From the sequence record OR062527: 64,000 bases of DNA. One strand, written 5' to 3'. Numbering within the stretch: position 1 is the stretch's first letter; the number at the start of each line of letters is the position of its first letter. This document shows, one piece after another, positions 12,116 to 62,844 of this stretch. The position numbers and the translations under genes are program-made. This DNA is from Escherichia phage vB_EcoM_11B_SA_NWU. A model generated the notes under the pieces. It did not search any database. It was not told where the DNA came from and worked only from the letters and a program-made list of their open reading frames with translations.

Positions 12116-12172
12116 AACTTTATGTAAAAATGCTTTAAAAATTTCATGGTATAATGAATCTAAGTCCTTCCA

Positions 12173-12775
12173 TTATAGATTAAATCCTTCAAAATCAAGA
12201 GTATAGATAGTGTATGTTGAATACTTTTTATACTCATATCTATCTGCAATTCTAAATACACTTCCAGCTGGTATCATTACTTCTTGTTCATCTGAAACTA
12301 ATTACATATTACGATAGCGATGGCTATCCGGAAACTTAAAGCTTGGATTGTATTCTTTACAGCGTAGAGCTTTTATAGCATACTCCTGGAAATTGAATAC
12401 CATAGGAGCTTTGAATTCAAAAATAACTTGTGTGTTATACTCTAAACCGGAAGCAAAATGTAGAGCTATATTTTTATCATATGAAGCTGATACTACTTTA
12501 TCAAATGTAATAATATCAATTCCTTGATTTAACACCTGCTTAGTCTCAGCTGGAACACCTCTCCAAAGAGGTTTATCGTTTGGTTCCAAACGAGATTTGA
12601 TTATTTCATTTAACCAAGTATGGTCATCTGGCTTATTAGTAATACAATGAATTAAAAGTTCAATTTCGGATAAATTAAACCCTTCAGAAAGTAATTCTTC
12701 ACGAATAGAAGCACGCACCGATGCATCCATTGATTTGATTTTAAAATCATTTAATTGCATTACTGAGTATTTCAT
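12173..12775 (-). pseudogene. modA: modA ADP-ribosyltransferase interrupted by an in-frame TAA (157-aa product; catalytic motif lies after the stop)
   Basis: ORF stops at TAA 12302-12304; the same frame continues LVSDEQEVMIPAGSVFRIADRY... for 42 codons, giving 200 codons in total; compare modB HEQEWMVPIG. Confidence 0.6.
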
Positions 12776-13407
12776 TCAACTACCTCAATATCATAAACTT
12801 TAAATGTTCCAAATGAATCATGCAATTTTTCTTTTGAAATAGAAGTTATTTTATACTTTCCAATTGGAACCATCCATTCTTGTTCATGTACAATCATCAT
12901 TAAGTTATCAGTGCGTTCTGAATCTAATCCATCAGTATCTTCATATGTATACTTGAACTCAGTATTTGGAGAAGAAAGTATAATATCGCTGATATGGTCA
13001 GAGTAATTAAAAGCTTTATCAGTTTTTAATCGAAATATTGTTTCAGTGAAATATTCAGCATAAGAAAAAGAGCATGCTGTATGCAAACTAGTAGTAAATG
13101 AATCTACCCTGTTCGTTGAAAACACTTCTCCAACTTGTAAATCTTTAATGAGTTCTTTTGTTGATTTTGATATACCACGATATAACTGATAAGGCGATTT
13201 AGTTAAATGCTTTTTAACGATTTTATTCAACTGCCGATGAAGAGCTTCATTCTTTTTAGCTTCCATACATTGCCAAAGAATTGACTGCTCGAAGTCAGTA
13301 AATTTTTCACAGACCTTTTTATACATATCATATTGAAAATCAACGCTTTCAGCTTTTATAGATAACTGTTCAACATCTGCTGGATTAATAATCATGATAG
13401 CCTCCAT
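12772..13407 (-). CDS. modB: ModB ADP-ribosyltransferase (211 aa)
   Basis: ART motifs: Arg (YRGISK), STS-like (SFTTSL) and E-x-E (HEQEWMVP); early promoter at 13420-13451; synteny. Confidence 0.7.
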   Translation of the reverse strand: MEAIMIINPADVEQLSIKAESVDFQYDMYKKVCEKFTDFEQSILWQCMEAKKNEALHRQLNKIVKKHLTKSPYQLYRGISKSTKELIKDLQVGEVFSTNRVDSFTTSLHTACSFSYAEYFTETIFRLKTDKAFNYSDHISDIILSSPNTEFKYTYEDTDGLDSERTDNLMMIVHEQEWMVPIGKYKITSISKEKLHDSFGTFKVYDIEVVE

Positions 13408-52508: not shown

Positions 52509-53522
52509 TCATTTATAATAACTTCGATGGTTTTCAAGATAGACCTTCTCAAGGAAGTCATCCCAGAAACCCATGTCTACTTTTTGTTGCATACCGTTCT
52601 TAGAAGCTTCAGTAGATGCTGCTTCTACTTGATCGACCACATCTTCCAAAAACTCTTGAACTGTTTTAAATGGATGTTTACCCAACTTCACGTCGAGAAT
52701 AAATGGAGCATCTTTGAGTGGATAGACCAAGTCGCCAGTTTTGTAAATTTCCAATAGTTGAAGTCCACCACGACAAGCATGACTCAGAGCTTTCCAGTCA
52801 ATGCCTTCATTCGCTTCAGCCTTACGAGCACGTTCGCCGTATTCAGCATCTAATTTGTTCAGTGACTGCTTAAGCTCAATAATAGAAAGCGTTGTCTGAT
52901 ATTTACGACCCAACACAGTGTAGAACGTTTGTGGACCTGTTTTCTCATGATTATGGAATACCCATTCACAGAATTCATTCTCTGGAAGACGATGCTTAAT
53001 ATCTTCAACCTTGGTACGACGCAAGTGGTCTGGAATACCTTCTTGATAGTCAACCCATTGCTCAGGGATTTGATTAACTACTTTCAATACATCGCGTAAT
53101 GCTGCCAAACGAGAACCCTTGACACCGTATTTAGAAGCTTGCTTGCGAACATATCCTAAATAGGATTTCATATTAGTCGTATAGAAACGAGAGCGGTTGT
53201 CTTGAATAAACTTCCACACATCAGGCAAATCAGATTTAACCACTAGTTCAGGTGGAGTGTGAAGCATATCCAATGCTACAGTTTCACCATCTGCTGCTAA
53301 TTTAAAGAAATACTTAAGACTGTATAGTTCATGGTCAATATCATCTTTAGTGTTTTTAGATGATGTGTTGTTGGTGTTTTTACTCATGTGCTCTTTGACA
53401 TTTCCGATAAGAATATCGCGAGCAGGAGGAACAAAGATTTCTTTAAAATCTACATCAGATTCTGGGGTAGAAGTTCCATAAAGATGACTACCAAAATAGC
53501 TTTTCATTACTGTTTTCATCAT
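52509..53522 (-). CDS. Pol-beta-superfamily minimal nucleotidyltransferase-like protein (337 aa)
   Basis: N-terminal GSHLYGTSTPESDVDF (GS-x11-DxD) motif; strong terminator downstream. Confidence 0.55.
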   Translation of the reverse strand: MMKTVMKSYFGSHLYGTSTPESDVDFKEIFVPPARDILIGNVKEHMSKNTNNTSSKNTKDDIDHELYSLKYFFKLAADGETVALDMLHTPPELVVKSDLPDVWKFIQDNRSRFYTTNMKSYLGYVRKQASKYGVKGSRLAALRDVLKVVNQIPEQWVDYQEGIPDHLRRTKVEDIKHRLPENEFCEWVFHNHEKTGPQTFYTVLGRKYQTTLSIIELKQSLNKLDAEYGERARKAEANEGIDWKALSHACRGGLQLLEIYKTGDLVYPLKDAPFILDVKLGKHPFKTVQEFLEDVVDQVEAASTEASKNGMQQKVDMGFWDDFLEKVYLENHRSYYK

Positions 53523-53980
53523 TCAGCCTTATATTCAATAACAGGACATACTTTAGCTTTACGAGCTTTTAAAAATTCAACGATAACCGATTTCTTGGGT
53601 TGAATAGGAGGTAAACCTTTATTTTTCCTATCAATGTTTTCTACGTGTAAAGCATAATCCTTTTTCCATTTATAATCTTTATATTTTTCACGCAAATGTA
53701 CAGGAATAACAAATAAACCAATAATAAGTAAAACAACCAAAAGCGCAAGTATAAATGCCGATGGAAGAAGAGTCCATAAACTACCGAAAATAAGCCAACG
53801 CTGTAGGCTTTCTGTACAAATAATTGTTAGCCCTACGAGTATAGCACATCCAAAAATAGAAACGAAAAATGTAGGAATAGCAATAGACCAAAAATATGCG
53901 CATAGTGTCTTAGGTCGTTGCCATTCATCGTTAAACAATTTGAATAATTTATAGTGCCAAGAGTTTTCATTAATAATCAT
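53519..53980 (-). CDS. membrane protein (153 aa)
   Basis: Multiple hydrophobic helices. Confidence 0.55.
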   Translation of the reverse strand: MIINENSWHYKLFKLFNDEWQRPKTLCAYFWSIAIPTFFVSIFGCAILVGLTIICTESLQRWLIFGSLWTLLPSAFILALLVVLLIIGLFVIPVHLREKYKDYKWKKDYALHVENIDRKNKGLPPIQPKKSVIVEFLKARKAKVCPVIEYKAE

Positions 53981-57199: not shown

Positions 57200-57412
57200 T
57201 CATTTTTGTCCTGTATTTACTTTATGCCGATGCACGGCCTTAACTTTATCAAGGTATTTTTCAAAATTTCGCAATCTGGTATAGTCTGCCGGAGATTGGT
57301 TGAGTGATACTTCTCGACGCAAAGCTGAAATGATATTTCCAACTTCTCTACGAATTTCATCTAATTGAAGCACAGTAAGATTGCGAAGTTGCTTTTCAGT
57401 TAATTGTAGCAT
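57200..57412 (-). CDS. rI.1-like small protein (70 aa)
   Basis: Minus-strand ORF between tk and rI. Confidence 0.55.
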
Positions 57413-57454
57413 ATATACCCCTTTAGTTAGATAAACCTATTTATAACTTTTGCA

Positions 57455-58036
57455 CTAACCGAGCTTTTTAGTTAATTCATTCCAATGTTTTCTGCACAAA
57501 GAAACATAAATTTCATCACCAATACAGATTTGATTACCTTCTTTAACTGGTGTTCCATCTTCCATTAATCGAGCTGTCATAATCGCTTTTTTGCCGCAAT
57601 GACAAACTGCCTTTAGTTCAATAAGTTTATCTGCAATCGCTAAAAGTTCTTTAGAACCTTCGAATAATTTTCCAGCGAAATCAGTTCTTAATCCATAAGC
57701 CATAACAGGAACATTATATGTATCAACAATTCGGCTTAATTGGTGCACCTGTTCAGTTTTTAAAAACTGAGCTTCATCCACAAATACGCAATGAATATCT
57801 TTTTGTGCTTCAGCCCATTTATAGAACTCGAAAATATCCATATCATCTGTAATAATATTCGCTTCCTGCTTAATTCCAATGCGAGAAACGACTTCACAGA
57901 CAGAATCGCGAGTATCAATAGCAGGCTTAAGAACTAATACACCCATTCCACGTTCTTTATAATTATGCGCAGCAGTCAAAAGAGAAGCAGATTTTCCAGC
58001 ATTCATTGCTGCATAAGTAAAAATTAAACTCGCCAT
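57455..58036 (-). CDS. tk: thymidine kinase (193 aa)
   Basis: P-loop NAGKSASL; zinc ribbon CHCG...CRKH; 193 aa. Confidence 0.9.
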   Translation of the reverse strand: MASLIFTYAAMNAGKSASLLTAAHNYKERGMGVLVLKPAIDTRDSVCEVVSRIGIKQEANIITDDMDIFEFYKWAEAQKDIHCVFVDEAQFLKTEQVHQLSRIVDTYNVPVMAYGLRTDFAGKLFEGSKELLAIADKLIELKAVCHCGKKAIMTARLMEDGTPVKEGNQICIGDEIYVSLCRKHWNELTKKLG

Positions 58037-58037
58037 C

Positions 58038-58226
58038 TTAGTCCTTAGTTAAATTTTCTAAATATGTTTCTAAATCATTTTCAGCTTTATCGATAGATTT
58101 TACTAATTCGTAATATGTTTCGGCATCTCCATAATCTGAAGCCGCTTCAAAAGATAAATCTCGTTCTAAACTAATAATTTCACCAACTAAAAATAATATT
58201 TCATTCTTTTCTTCGCGAGTAATCAT
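58038..58226 (-). CDS. small helical acidic protein (62 aa)
   Basis: MITREEKNEILFLVGEII... Confidence 0.5.
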   Translation of the reverse strand: MITREEKNEILFLVGEIISLERDLSFEAASDYGDAETYYELVKSIDKAENDLETYLENLTKD

Positions 58227-58408
58227 AAGGAATTTATATAATCAATAAGTTCTTGTTCTTTATTATCGAATTCTTTAGAAAGTTCTTCGTACTCGTTTGC
58301 ACTAAAAGGACCGCATTCATTACAAACTTTTTCCAATTCACTATTTTTATCCATAACTTCGTGGATAAGAGAAAAGAGTTTGTCTTTTTGTTCTTTACTT
58401 AGGCTCAT
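58223..58408 (-). CDS. small helical acidic protein (61 aa)
   Basis: MSLSKEQKDKLFSLIHEV... Confidence 0.5.
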   Translation of the reverse strand: MSLSKEQKDKLFSLIHEVMDKNSELEKVCNECGPFSANEYEELSKEFDNKEQELIDYINSL

Positions 58409-58578
58409 ATATTAATTTCCAGAAGTTTTAAAATAATTCGCTTTTGCTTAAATATTTCCATAGTTAAATGATCAGTATCTTTTTGACCAATTCCAATGGC
58501 AAAACCTTTATTAGCAGCGAGTTCAATTAAATTATCAAGTTCACGTGACACTTCATATTGTAACTCAGAACTATTCAT
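58405..58578 (-). CDS. micro-ORF (57 aa)
   Basis: Hand-translated MNSSELQYEVSRELDNLIELAANKGF...; ATGA overlaps at both ends. Confidence 0.45.
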   Translation of the reverse strand: MNSSELQYEVSRELDNLIELAANKGFAIGIGQKDTDHLTMEIFKQKRIILKLLEINI

Positions 58579-58802
58579 TTCGGTTTTCCTTCTTTAACGA
58601 AATCTGGATAAGGATAAAATCCTGAATAAAATCCTTCACCTTTATGATTGATGCATCCTTTATTAGAACAATAGCACCAATAATCAAAATCACAAGTCAT
58701 TTCATCATTACATAAAGCAAAGACAACTGGCCATTCACACTTTTCACAATGGACATTTTTAAGAATACTAGTTTGGCTCATAACCATGTAACCTTTAAGC
58801 AA
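58575..58802 (-). CDS. cysteine-rich small protein (75 aa)
   Basis: Ten Cys/His residues (CEKCE...CNDEMTCDFDYWCYCSNKGCINH). Confidence 0.5.
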   Translation of the reverse strand: MLKGYMVMSQTSILKNVHCEKCEWPVVFALCNDEMTCDFDYWCYCSNKGCINHKGEGFYSGFYPYPDFVKEGKPK

Positions 58803-58990
58803 TATTCTTCTACGTGCTGTTTACGACCTTTCTTATCAATAAAGGTATATTCAACGAATGTTCCAATGTAGTCTTTATCTACATCATGTGGACTATTAAT
58901 TGGGCATTTAGTACGGCAAATGCGTTCCCATTGACGAATAATTACTGCTTTGTTTTTAGGATCAAACGGATGCGGGTAATGTACTTTCAT
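58778..58990 (-). CDS. small protein (70 aa)
   Basis: Minus-strand ORF. Confidence 0.45.
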   Translation of the reverse strand: MKVHYPHPFDPKNKAVIIRQWERICRTKCPINSPHDVDKDYIGTFVEYTFIDKKGRKQHVEEYCLKVTWL

Positions 58991-59441
58991 AATCCACCAC
59001 TATTAAATCAATATCAGGAGTAAACATGTCAATTAATTTAGAAACCTTATCCCAATCACCGCCAGCAATACCACAACCTATGCGTGGAATGTAAATTACT
59101 GGTTTAAACAAAAGGGTTTCTGCCTGTAGATTTAATTCTATCATACAGTTTACTAAAGCACCATAATCAAGATTAGGACCCGGTTCGTATTGCGTATACA
59201 AATTATAGCACATACTAAATCCTGTAGGATTATGTTTAAAAACAATAGACATATCGCCTAATTTATCACGAGAACCGTATTCGGTTGTGGTCTTATCTAT
59301 TTCTAAAATTTTAGGATAGGCCCTTGCTAATTGACCAGCTACGCCGCTGCCCATCGTATGAAAACAATTACACCCGTGCGCAATAATATTACCTTCAAGA
59401 AAGAGGGCGACAATATCGCCCTTGATATATTTTACAATCAT
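58962..59441 (-). CDS. macro-domain-like protein (159 aa), putative ADP-ribose binding or hydrolysing
   Basis: GDIVA...NIIAHGCNCF..MGSGVAGQL and IPRIGCGIAGG motifs parallel the macro-domain GDIT...AIVNAAN..GGGV / IGTG signatures. Confidence 0.5.
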   Translation of the reverse strand: MIVKYIKGDIVALFLEGNIIAHGCNCFHTMGSGVAGQLARAYPKILEIDKTTTEYGSRDKLGDMSIVFKHNPTGFSMCYNLYTQYEPGPNLDYGALVNCMIELNLQAETLLFKPVIYIPRIGCGIAGGDWDKVSKLIDMFTPDIDLIVVDYESTLPASV

Positions 59442-59785
59442 CTAGTACTCAATCCTCGATTATAAGAATCTACTAAACGGTCAACCATTGAACGGCACGC
59501 GGCTTTGTCTTTTTCCTCCGCAACTGAGCATTCCAAGGTATTCCACTTTTTAGCATATCGTTTTAATAATGTATCGTTTTTGTATCTGCTTGTTTTATCT
59601 CTTTCTCCGTCTTTATATGCATATATTAATTTCTGCGCAAATTCAGCTTGGCATGCTTTATTTTTCCCGCAATAATCCGCTGCAGTACGGTTTACATACT
59701 CTCTAATTTCAGTATATGATGTATCTGCTAACGCAGAAGCAGAAATTGAAATTAATCCTATACATAAAACCAAAATTTTAGTCAT
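59438..59785 (-). CDS. secreted Cys-containing protein (115 aa)
   Basis: N-terminal signal peptide MTKILVLCIGLISISASALA. Confidence 0.55.
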   Translation of the reverse strand: MTKILVLCIGLISISASALADTSYTEIREYVNRTAADYCGKNKACQAEFAQKLIYAYKDGERDKTSRYKNDTLLKRYAKKWNTLECSVAEEKDKAACRSMVDRLVDSYNRGLSTR

Positions 59786-60323
59786 TTACTATTTCCAAAA
59801 GTTTATTATTTTTAAGGTAATTAGCCTTTTCTAGGACTTCAGAAGCATATTTAGAACCTGCTTTAACATTCCATCCCGAATTATAAGAGGATATCGCTTT
59901 TCTTATATCGCCCTTATGTATATTTAACCAATAAGAAAGTTCAATGTACGCCCAGGAAGCTGAATTGGACCGTTTATTCAACATTCTTTTTATTTCAGCA
60001 TCGGTCATATTATAACCAAGTTCCTTAACTCTTGCTCGCATAGTAGGCAAATAATTTTGGAACATTCCGTAAGCGTGATGCTTTGGTTTAGATTTTAAAT
60101 TAACTCCGCCAGAGCTTTCTTGCCATAAAATAGCAGCCATTATATGACCTAATCCACTCTTATGAACATTTTGGTGTGTTTTATATTTTCCATCCTTAGA
60201 AAACTGTTCCCCGAATTGATACGCGTAACGCATGTTATCGAGTTGGACATTACTGAAAGTATGCTCGGAGCTATGTGCCATCATTGAAATGGCCAATAGA
60301 CCAGCGAGTAGTGCTTTTCTCAT
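59778..60323 (-). CDS. secreted SLT-domain lytic transglycosylase-like protein (181 aa)
   Basis: Signal peptide plus SLT motifs (LWQESSGG, YGMFQ, SSYNSGW). Confidence 0.65.
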   Translation of the reverse strand: MRKALLAGLLAISMMAHSSEHTFSNVQLDNMRYAYQFGEQFSKDGKYKTHQNVHKSGLGHIMAAILWQESSGGVNLKSKPKHHAYGMFQNYLPTMRARVKELGYNMTDAEIKRMLNKRSNSASWAYIELSYWLNIHKGDIRKAISSYNSGWNVKAGSKYASEVLEKANYLKNNKLLEIVND

Positions 60324-60330
60324 GCTTACC

Positions 60331-60792
60331 TCATTGAGTTTTAATTACTGCTTTAGAAGCCTTTCCTGGTAAACGACGACTGTTGATAATTGCCATCCTA
60401 CATTGAAGTGACGGGTCTTTAAACTTCTCATTAGGTTTACAAACCGTAAATCCAAGCCAAAGATTTCCATCTGTGATTTCTAAACGTCCAGGACGATATT
60501 CAACCCCATCAATAAAATCCTCGTCAATGTCAGGACGCGGAGGCATACTCAGGAATTCATTAACTTCTAAAACATGGTCTTTTATTTTATGGAATAATTC
60601 AAAAACATATGTCTCATCAATCTCCCGTTGAATTGCACGATCAAGAAGATGTTGAGAATATTTTAGATGAAACGATGAGACTCCTGCTGCTTTTGATGCC
60701 TCACGAATCTCATTGTTAATTTGACGAAACTCCGACTCAAAATGACGACGAAGCTTATTTCGACGGATAAAAACTTCTGTATTGATAGTCAT
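60331..60792 (-). CDS. regB: RegB sequence-specific endoribonuclease (153 aa)
   Basis: 153 aa; sequence matches T4 RegB as recalled; early promoter at 60816-60849. Confidence 0.9.
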   Translation of the reverse strand: MTINTEVFIRRNKLRRHFESEFRQINNEIREASKAAGVSSFHLKYSQHLLDRAIQREIDETYVFELFHKIKDHVLEVNEFLSMPPRPDIDEDFIDGVEYRPGRLEITDGNLWLGFTVCKPNEKFKDPSLQCRMAIINSRRLPGKASKAVIKTQ

Positions 60793-60815
60793 GTTGTTCT
60801 CCTCTTAACTGATAG

Positions 60816-60849
60816 AAAAATTATACCACAGTCAAGAGGAAAAGTAAAC
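60816..60849 (-). promoter_or_regulatory. T4-type early promoter upstream of regB
   Basis: GTTTACTTTTCCTCTTGACTGTGGTATAAT. Confidence 0.55.
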
Positions 60850-60851
60850 AG

Positions 60852-61172
60852 TTATTCTTTAAATCTAATCAATTTATTCATAGACTTTGAAACTTCTGCA
60901 CGAACCTCATGTAAGTTTTTAAGCTGTTCAAGACGCTGCTCATAGTAAGCAATTTCGTCTTCTTCAAGACAGTCCTGCGAATCTTCTTTAAGATAACGTG
61001 CATAGTCCTGGAAAGCTTTACGGACTACTTCCTGGAAGTCATCAAGACTTTGAATTTTCTTAGGAGCGGCAGATACACGACGAGGTGCAGTATAATACTC
61101 ATAACCAAACCCTGCGCTTAATTGAGCCATTAGTATTTTTCCTCTGGTTGGAACACTGCACGACAAGCCCAC
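60852..61172 (-). CDS. vs.x-region protein (106 aa)
   Basis: Minus-strand ORF. Confidence 0.5.
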
Positions 61173-61411
61173 ATACTGGCTTCTTTGAGTTTCGTTTTAG
61201 CAATAGTTAACTGATCGAGGCTTTCAGCATAATTCTTCGCGAAATCACAGTCTTCGCAATTATCTAGTGCTTCCCAGAATTCATCGTATAAAGCGTCAAA
61301 GATAAGTCCTAAACGAACTTCAGCGTCTTTAATAGCATTCACTTTACCGATTTTCTCTTCAGTATGTGGTTTATAACCTTTAATATCTTCAATCATATTT
61401 GACTTCCTCAC
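61130..61411 (-). CDS. vs.x-region small protein (93 aa)
   Basis: Minus-strand ORF in the region where T4 carries vs.4 (Acb2); identity not established. Confidence 0.45.
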
Positions 61412-61610
61412 CAGTACCTAAATCATATTCAACTAAACGAATAGGTTCATGAATGCCATATTCTTGAACAGAAATTTCTGTCGTAGGATAAATTCCATCA
61501 ATATCCCCCATATTCCATGCTTCATTAAATTGTTGCTCACCTGAATTACTAAACCACTCAGTGAAAGCATTTAGTACATCTTCAGAACCTTCAATAATTA
61601 TCTTTGCCAT
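61389..61610 (-). CDS. small acidic protein (73 aa)
   Basis: Minus-strand ORF. Confidence 0.5.
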   Translation of the reverse strand: MAKIIIEGSEDVLNAFTEWFSNSGEQQFNEAWNMGDIDGIYPTTEISVQEYGIHEPIRLVEYDLGTGEEVKYD

Positions 61611-61972
61611 TACAAACTCTCGGTAAAGGTACGAGCGATAACGTCGCGCTGCTGTTCCGGAGTCAGAGAGTTAAAGCGAACTGCATAACCGGATACACGG
61701 ATGGTCAGCTGCGGATATTTTTCCGGATGCTTAACTGCATCTTCCAGAGTTTCACGACGCAGAACGTTAACGTTCAGGTGTTGACCACCTTCAATTTTAA
61801 CTGTAGGCTGTGGCTCAATTTCAATTTCACGGGCATGCAAACCATAGAAAATTTCTGGGTCTACAAAAGAGTCCTCTTTAAAAGTTTTAGAAACGATAAT
61901 TCGTGCTTGAATACCATCTTCAAAATAAATAGTACCTTTGTGTGTGCCTTCAAGAATTTGATATGCTTTCAT
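61610..61972 (-). CDS. GrcA/YfiD-like autonomous glycyl-radical cofactor protein (120 aa), chimeric
   Basis: C-terminal about 66 aa ([18 protein letters not shown]...[31 protein letters not shown]) carries the glycyl-radical motif and is GC-rich; the N-terminal half is AT-rich. Confidence 0.75.
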
Positions 61973-61978
61973 ATAACC

Positions 61979-62308
61979 TCAATTAGAAAATAAATTTATC
62001 CAAGATTGTTCTTTAATTAAAAACGGCTCAGAATCATATGCCATTAAACTTTGAGTAATTAATCCTTTAAATGGTCCATCAATAAATTCCATTGTAAAAT
62101 ATGGAATTTTATTCATTAACCGTGCATTAGGAGCAGTGCATAAAACTCTGCATCCTTTGAATACACCTTTTTGTAATTTGTATTGCTTGGGATAAAATTC
62201 ACTCAAAATATCACTGTTTGCCAAAATTTCAAAATGATTCACCAACTTATTTTTAATAGTTTTTGGCGAAAAATAAAGATATTCAAAAAGCTGCGCATCT
62301 GTCATCAT
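61979..62308 (-). CDS. hypothetical protein (about 109 aa; start at internal Met), coupled to the upstream P-loop gene
   Basis: ATGA overlap with the stop of the 62305-62844 gene. Confidence 0.45.
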   Translation of the reverse strand: MMTDAQLFEYLYFSPKTIKNKLVNHFEILANSDILSEFYPKQYKLQKGVFKGCRVLCTAPNARLMNKIPYFTMEFIDGPFKGLITQSLMAYDSEPFLIKEQSWINLFSN

Positions 62309-62844
62309 TGCATTCCGATTACGAAAAACTGTGGACGAGTAATACCACCAATGCAACATTTACTATTGCAGCAGTAGTGTACAGTGTCCATATGGGCGCT
62401 ATAAATCTTATCCATATCAGGAGATTTAACAGGCTCATCAATTATATACAAAATTCGCGAAAGCGATAAACCTATGAACTTGCTTCCTTTATTACCAATA
62501 AAACTGCGCACAGAATCAGTAAATAAACGAAAACGTATATCATCATTAGAATAACGCGAAAATTCCTTTTTAATGTTATCTGCAGAAATTTTAGCGTAAG
62601 CTGAAGTATTAGAAAGAACAATAACTGTTCCGCCATCATACAGCCAATTAGCAGCAAAGTTAGTCACAGCAACTGATTTTCCGGATTGGCGACCACCGTC
62701 AAGTCGAAGAGTGCAATACTGTTTGAGTAAGTCTTCAAATGGCGGGATATAATCGTTTTTACAAATTTCTTCTACTCTAGCATCAGAATGGTGTGTAAAA
62801 GCATTCATCAGGGATAGATAAGGACCAGTCAAAAATGTTCTCAT
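62305..62844 (-). CDS. P-loop NTPase-like protein (about 179 aa; start at internal Met)
   Basis: Walker A-like GGRQSGKS and Walker B-like YIIDEP; GAGAGA ribosome-binding site; GC-rich structured leader upstream. Confidence 0.5.
   Translation of the reverse strand: MRTFLTGPYLSLMNAFTHHSDARVEEICKNDYIPPFEDLLKQYCTLRLDGGRQSGKSVAVTNFAANWLYDGGTVIVLSNTSAYAKISADNIKKEFSRYSNDDIRFRLFTDSVRSFIGNKGSKFIGLSLSRILYIIDEPVKSPDMDKIYSAHMDTVHYCCNSKCCIGGITRPQFFVIGMQ

Follow-up and report, generated by a model that had tools for sequence, protein, structure and literature searches.

The open reading frame at positions 58962..59441 of a 64,000-nt stretch of Escherichia phage vB_EcoM_11B_SA_NWU (record OR062527; the whole stretch analysed is called the window) encodes a macrodomain protein of the ALC1/TARG1-like class. 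On sequence grounds, the phage is T4-like (Tequatrovirus) and the gene is tk.4, also known as adfM. Its product is probably a stand-alone macrodomain ADP-ribosylglycohydrolase, which would undo the marks that DarT2 places on thymidine and would thereby neutralise the DarTG2 defence. The macro fold, the residues of the pocket, the position of tk.4 and the substitution of a glutamine for the catalytic lysine are established in the present analysis. That tk.4 is needed in the presence of DarTG2 has been shown in a single preprint, which concerns only the T4 allele (59% identical), and is presumed to hold for the window allele as well.

The ORF list gives an ATG-initiated frame of 159 residues on the minus strand. 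All the strings that the initial annotation had quoted as a macro signature are found in it, far beyond chance: GDIVA (residues 8-12), NIIAHGCNCF (18-27), MGSGVAGQL (30-38) and IPRIGCGIAGG (118-128). The gene overlaps both of its neighbours:

58962..59441, minus strand: coding sequence of tk.4 (adfM), assigned from the ORF, the Pfam Macro match, the AlphaFold2 model, Foldseek and the T4 tk.4 slot
59438..59441, minus strand: ATGA overlap of the tk.4 start with the vs stop, from the ORF coordinates and the sequence
58962..58990, minus strand: 29-nt overlap of the 3' end of tk.4 with the start of tk.3 (DUF7202), from the ORF coordinates and the comparison with T4

The overlap between vs and tk.4 is also 4 nt long in T4, whereas the T4 overlap between tk.4 and tk.3 measures 4 nt as compared with 29 nt in the window. 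The ATGA overlap suggests that tk.4 is translationally coupled to vs within the co-directional regB-vs.1-vs-tk.4-tk.3 string. The order of the genes in the window (tk, tk.1, tk.2, two extra ORFs, tk.3, tk.4, vs, vs.1, regB) matches that of T4 (NC_000866; tk, tk.1, tk.2, tk.3, tk.4, vs, vs.1, regB), and tk.4 occupies the slot between vs and tk.3 that is conserved in Tevenvirinae genomes. Many Tequatrovirus (T4-like) genomes share 96-97% identity with positions 57400-61200. Over its final 24 kb, the window has the same level of identity (96-97%) to RB14, PYps55T and other phages, and no identical record was present. An insertion of about 376 bp relative to T4 separates tk.2 from tk.3 (window ~58400..58775) and carries the two extra ORFs:

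58405..58578 and 58575..58802, both minus strand: the two small ORFs of the insertion, from the ORF list

One of these encodes 57 residues without a Pfam hit. The other encodes 75 residues matching PF23895, 'Phage zinc binding domain' (E=3.4e-29).

A scan of 57300-62500 for promoters and terminators returned 18 sites as compared with 20.5 +/- 5.1 in shuffled sequence, that is, no excess, so the scan provides no independent evidence on the timing of tk.4 expression. The only notable site is a strong sigma-70-like match (TTTACT-17-TG-TATAAT; 60820..60848, minus strand) directly upstream of regB. With the reservation that the scan did not exceed chance overall, it is plausibly an early promoter of the regB-vs.1-vs-tk.4 string. 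A perfect inverted repeat with an 8-bp stem, AGGGCGATATTGTCGCCCT (59404..59422), falls within codons 7-13 (KGDIVAL) in the 5' part of tk.4 and was flagged by the terminator scan on both strands. This hairpin may be merely a consequence of codon usage.

The protein is 59% identical to T4 Tk.4 over 155 residues (E=3e-71), so that 64 of the 155 positions differ; the homology extends over the full length of T4 Tk.4 and the active-site residues are kept. The 50 N-terminal residues, which contain the HGCNCFHTMGSGVAGQL motif, are 86% identical to those of T4 Tk.4, and residues 51-155 are 42-48% identical. The two proteins have in common the slot between vs and tk.3, the size, the fold family, the HGCNCFHTMGSGVAGQL motif and the NLYTQ motif. 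The window allele differs from T4 Tk.4 in a C-terminal extension of four residues, in the 29-nt overlap with tk.3 and in its glycine loop, which reads GCGIAGGDW as compared with GAGIGKGNW in T4.

That the protein is a macrodomain is supported by independent profile and structure comparisons. The Pfam Macro model (PF01661) is matched with E=3.7e-8 and 33.8 bits, above the curated gathering cut-off of 22 bits, over profile positions 2-117 of 118, and PHROG 335, which bears the label 'phosphatase', is matched with E=4.8e-71. A collection of 5.8 billion proteins contains 803 homologues, and many of the best 120 carry a precomputed PF01661 assignment. The AlphaFold2 model, calculated from an alignment of 75 of these 803 homologues, has a mean pLDDT of 94.1 and a pTM of 0.89 and displays the alternating strands and helices of the three-layer alpha/beta/alpha macro fold; the only disordered part is residues 156-159, the four that are additional to T4. 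The first 20 matches of this model in the PDB according to Foldseek are all macrodomains, with a probability of 1.00 and TM values of 0.66-0.82. TARG1, the DarG macrodomains of Thermus (Taq) and Mycobacterium (Mtb), yeast Poa1p, Bacteroides BT1257, Streptomyces SCO6735 and Thermosipho DarTG are found with a probability of 1.00 each, and the coronavirus Mac1 domains follow far behind the TARG1/DarG group. A profile search of the PDB agrees with this order: BT1257 (4.8e-20), TARG1 (5e-17), SCO6735 (8.3e-16), Poa1p (9.7e-15) and DarG (3.2e-12) are followed by the coronavirus and alphavirus macrodomains (Mac1) at only about 2e-3.

These sequence-profile and fold matches place the tk.4 product in the ALC1/TARG1-like class, its closest relatives being found there rather than among the MacroD, PARG or viral Mac1 classes. 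The initial annotation had called the protein macro-domain-like and had named structure prediction and a profile search as the means of checking the call; AlphaFold2, Foldseek and Pfam all confirm it. The macro or phosphatase annotation as such is already known, as the gene is so labelled in many phage records.

Three segments of the putative active site are listed here with the alignments from which they were assigned:

59367..59378, minus strand: HGCN motif, H22-G23-C24-N25, from the invariant columns and the hhalign alignment to the DarG profile
59190..59195, minus strand: codons of T83-Q84, from the profile alignment to TARG1 and the hhalign alignment to the DarG/PhiKZ profile
59058..59078, minus strand: glycine-rich phosphate-binding loop, G122-G128 (GCGIAGG), from conservation and the alignment to TARG1 and DarG

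Among the 75 homologues, T4-type alleles included, H22, G23, N25, C26, G33, A35, D49, N80, Y82, Q84, P119, G122, G124 and W130 are invariant, and G127 and G128 are conserved in at least 90%. The hhalign comparison of the Tk.4 family with a profile made of the Taq and Mtb DarG segments and PhiKZ gp104 has a probability of 98.8%. It pairs TQYEPG with TKKHWR, and N25, Q84 and P87 lie opposite DarG N22, K80 and W83, respectively. The spacing of H22 and N25 matches that of H24 and N27 in SCO6735. In the profile alignment to TARG1, Q84 is opposite the lysine of 'ITKK', which is K84. The loop is aligned with GCGLDRL of TARG1 and GAGNGGL of DarG, with A126 opposite TARG1 D125. The catalytic dyad K84/D125 of TARG1 is thus represented by Q84/A126 in Tk.4.

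As judged from these profile alignments to TARG1 and DarG, and from the published equivalence of SCO6735 Gln85 with their catalytic lysines, the Tk.4 family is devoid of the catalytic lysine and has the invariant Gln84 in its place. The combination of a glutamine at the catalytic-lysine position with His-x-x-Asn, as in SCO6735, is found in Tk.4 by way of the TARG1 and DarG alignments, and BT1257, the best sequence match, has a glutamine at that position as well. Mutational data are available for both kinds of site. In DarG, K80A abolishes the activity and N22A, second in its effect, reduces it strongly. In SCO6735, where Gln85 is the site of the catalytic lysine, Q85A and Q85E are both inactive, and Asn27 is needed, N27S strongly reducing the activity.

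The function of tk.4 in T4 has been addressed genetically. When a T4 transposon library was grown on a DarTG2 host (HIDEN-SEQ), tk.4 was the sole significant hit, and a clean knockout of tk.4 makes T4 sensitive to DarTG2 (bioRxiv 10.1101/2025.11.20.689424, November 2025). The authors of that preprint renamed the gene adfM, for anti-DarT factor macrodomain, pointed out that its product resembles in structure the DarG macrodomain of M. tuberculosis, and proposed removal of ADP-ribose from DNA as its activity (bioRxiv 10.1101/2025.11.20.689424). A further factor had been predicted because T4 lacking adfA and adfN remains resistant to DarTG2. AdfA and the NADAR protein AdfN counter DarTG1, and both AdfA and AdfB bind the toxin. 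The searchable literature yielded no paper other than the bioRxiv preprint that joins tk.4 and DarTG2, nor any report in which a Tk.4 protein had been assayed biochemically. The initial annotation had suggested that the protein may counter DarT-type toxins and that a phage knockout should be tried on DarTG-carrying hosts; the library and the knockout of the 59%-identical T4 orthologue bear out this role, and both the hypothesis and the experiment are already in the literature for T4. The anti-DarTG2 role is thus known for T4, and what is new here, by way of refinement, is the allele cassette, the glutamine-type site and the split between the lineages of Tk.4 and PhiKZ AdfM.

By combining the genetic data on T4 with the structural comparisons, it is possible to propose how the window protein would act. 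The tk.4 product would be made from the co-directional regB-vs.1-vs-tk.4 string and would bind ADP-ribose in a pocket lined by G8-D9, H22-N25, G31-Q37, T83-Q84 and the G122-G128 loop. Its target would be the ADP-ribose that the host DarT2 puts on thymidine in single-stranded phage DNA, at TNTC motifs, and the bond to be cut would be the one joining N3 of the thymidine to the distal ribose. The catalysis would follow the route proposed for SCO6735, which is independent of lysine and mediated by a water molecule that the glutamine positions. The template could then be replicated again, and the abortive-infection defence exerted by DarTG2 would be neutralised.

Several observations lower the confidence in this mechanism: the genetics come from a single preprint, the window allele differs from the T4 allele at 64 positions, the product is acidic (pI 4.9), and counterparts of the lysines K34 and K89, which help SCO6735 to bind DNA, are apparently absent, as estimated from a simple offset and not from an alignment. 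A stand-alone homologue from Pelagimonas, the one bacterial homologue examined, is 39% identical and has no DarT nearby, so that the family does not appear to be intrinsically tied to DarT. The range of substrates of Tk.4 might also be wider, since TARG1-like macrodomains remove uracil-linked ADP-ribose from RNA as well.

The closest characterised relatives are DarG, TARG1 and SCO6735, each of which takes ADP-ribose off thymidine in DNA. Human TARG1/OARD1 (PDB 4J5R) is the best Foldseek hit of the Tk.4 model (E=1.5e-9, TM 0.72-0.82) and removes both thymine- and uracil-linked ADP-ribose. SCO6735 of Streptomyces coelicolor (PDB 5E3B) resembles Tk.4 in that it stands alone, has a glutamine in place of the catalytic lysine and contains His-x-x-Asn, although the two are only about 23% identical and SCO6735 is encoded by a bacterial chromosomal gene rather than by a phage. 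On DNA, it releases thymidine-linked ADP-ribose by hydrolysis at a higher rate than either DarG or TARG1, and it protects Streptomyces from DarT.

The DarG macrodomain of DarTG2 (PDB 5M31, 5M3I) has the fold, the asparagine and the glycine-rich loop in common with Tk.4, and acts on the class of substrate that T4 Tk.4 counters genetically. It differs in having K80 and W83 (TKxHW) and a C-terminal DarT-binding domain, whereas Tk.4 has TQYEP and is without that domain. The macrodomain portions of the PADLOC and NCBIfam (NF048014) DarG models match Tk.4 with E ~1e-7, the scores being 28 bits for PADLOC DarG and 29 bits, as compared with a cut-off of 250, for NF048014, of which positions 2-142 of 338 are covered. 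The genes beside tk.4 in the window are vs and tk.3, and no DarT gene is among them. Membership of the DarG family was rejected, as the score lies far below the family cut-off and the protein has neither the TKxHW lysine nor the C-terminal domain nor an adjacent DarT.

A second phage protein named AdfM has been characterised biochemically:

NC_004629, 12518..13006: PhiKZ gp104, a DarG-type macrodomain

In vitro, PhiKZ gp104 strips a TNTC oligonucleotide of the ADP-ribose installed by DarT2 (Cell Rep 2026, PMC13309987) and rescues the toxicity of DarT2 (PMC13309987), which indicates that the macrodomain strategy of a phage works biochemically. Like T4 Tk.4, it is a stand-alone phage macrodomain that counters DarT2. 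It is 23% identical to Tk.4, however, and keeps the lysine of the DarG-type FPTKxxW motif (FPTKDNW). It matches Mtb DarG with E=9.4e-25 and the PADLOC DarG model with 133 bits, as compared with 28 bits for the window protein and 36 bits for T4 Tk.4. The low identity, the lysine in place of the glutamine and the DarG scores assign the two AdfM proteins to distinct macrodomain lineages with different predicted catalytic residues, lysine in PhiKZ AdfM and glutamine in T4 AdfM.

Removal of thymidine-linked ADP-ribose is not the only activity to be considered for a protein of this fold. Tk.4 might be a small-molecule enzyme, either an ADP-ribose-1''-phosphate phosphatase resembling Poa1p or an O-acetyl-ADP-ribose deacetylase, whose role would be to clear the by-products of RNA repair or soluble immune signals derived from ADP-ribose. 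Poa1p is matched in fold, and in sequence with E=2.7e-9 over residues 3-78, and H22 and T29 lie opposite H23 and S30, two of the three Poa1p-type residues (H23, S30 and F152) and the positions replaced by alanine in two Poa1p structures (H23A, S30A), if a chain offset of three residues is assumed. T4 Tk.4 is annotated as 'phosphatase; contains A1pp phosphatase motif', PHROG uses the same word, and a comparative-genomics argument is compatible with such an enzyme. The 'phosphatase' label is, however, based on a motif, and the Poa1p match concerns mainly the N-terminal half of the protein, being strong only over residues 3-91. Weak in vitro activity as an Appr1p phosphatase is displayed by many macrodomains whose role lies elsewhere. 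A small-molecule enzyme would moreover leave the DarTG2-specific phenotype, the sole phenotype known for tk.4, unexplained, and we consider it improbable.

It is distinctly improbable, too, that Tk.4 blocks DarT2 mainly by binding to it, as a mimic of the antitoxin, or that it is a non-catalytic reader of ADP-ribose. Such a mode of action would agree with the absence of the catalytic lysine from Tk.4, with the inhibition of DarT in vitro by the catalytically dead SCO6735 Q85A, and with AdfA and AdfB, the other phage anti-DarT factors, which work through binding of the toxin. Tk.4 does not, however, contain the C-terminal DarT-binding domain of DarG, and the His, Asn and Gln that SCO6735 needs for catalysis are invariant in the 75 tk.4 homologues, and this invariance speaks for an enzymatic site that has been conserved.

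The initial annotation had also considered a role of the protein in reversing or tuning the modifications made by the phage itself, on the premise that the phage carries ModA and ModB. This premise holds for modB, which is intact, and fails for modA, which is interrupted by a stop codon:

12772..13407: modB, just upstream of modA, intact, 96% identical to T4 ModB
12170..12775, minus strand: modA, from the comparison with T4, with a stop codon at 12302-12304

The alt gene is outside the 64-kb window. Neither ModA nor ModB has a Pfam hit, and both were identified by comparison with T4. The in-frame TAA of modA is codon 158, where T4 has a glutamate (NM-E-LVSDEQEV), so that the product ends ahead of the EQE stretch; downstream of the stop, the frame stays open up to its usual end. 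An exact 26-mer of modA is present in 0 IMG/VR contigs in the TAA form and in 6 contigs in the GAA form, so that the stop looks private to the window genome, whether it is a nonsense mutation of natural or laboratory origin or a sequencing error.

The presence of a macrodomain and of ADP-ribosyltransferases in the same genome, with modB intact, and the shared direction of tk.4, regB and vs within one gene string might suggest that Tk.4 reverses or tunes the ADP-ribosylation of host proteins by Alt, ModA and ModB, or the RNAylation by ModB. This is a very remote prospect, as modA is interrupted while tk.4 is intact, the phenotype of tk.4 in T4 was specific to DarTG2 hosts, and the substrates of TARG1-class macrodomains are Glu/Asp esters and thymine and uracil bases. 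Alt, ModA and ModB modify arginine, a linkage that is reversed by hydrolases of the ARH/DraG fold, and arginine-linked ADP-ribose is not a known substrate of TARG1-class macrodomains. The reversal of ModA and ModB marks was rejected, having found no support, the chemistry of the linkage being wrong for the class and modA being interrupted in this genome.

Removal of the DarT2 mark from thymidine is retained as the probable function of the window protein. The divergence from T4 coincides with the body of tk.4:

58950..59422: cassette divergent from T4, from the MAFFT sliding identity to NC_000866

Within about 58950-59422, the body of tk.4, the DNA identity to T4 per 50 nt is 38-82%, whereas the flanks (tk to tk.3 and vs to regB) show 88-100% per 50 nt and are about 97% identical. 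Relative to T4, tk.4 looks like a gene-sized cassette. The window-type allele (a protein at least 90% identical) is found in at least 318 phage records and the T4-type allele, defined in the same way, in at least 224, besides intermediate classes; tk.4 homologues in general occur in about 2,770 phage records from many host genera. T-even genomes that are near-identical elsewhere carry tk.4 alleles about 40% apart at the protein level. The island of low identity together with two or more common classes of allele suggests a cassette-like exchange of tk.4 among T-even-like phages. In one deposit, OL964745.1 ('Escherichia phage T4'), the tk.4 homologue matches in two pieces at 53148-53544, over which two 'macro domain-containing protein' features are annotated, suggesting that the gene is frameshifted or split in that record.

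A tentative and rather doubtful extension of these observations is that the tk.4 slot might hold a swap-in cassette under arms-race selection, the alleles of which, using a lysine-free, glutamine-based chemistry unlike that of DarG and PhiKZ AdfM, would be specialised for different host ADP-ribosylating systems. If they are so specialised, the candidate targets are different variants of DarT2, uracil-linked ADP-ribose on RNA and other transferases.

The T-even phages stack their counter-measures against the ADP-ribosylation of DNA, AdfA and AdfN being directed against DarTG1 and Tk.4/AdfM against DarTG2, as has been published for T4. The name 'AdfM' now spans two unrelated lineages of macrodomains, that of Tk.4 with a putative catalytic glutamine and that of PhiKZ gp104 with a lysine. 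The occurrence of divergent tk.4 alleles in genomes that are otherwise near-identical matters for predicting the resistance of therapeutic and model phages to the variants of DarTG.
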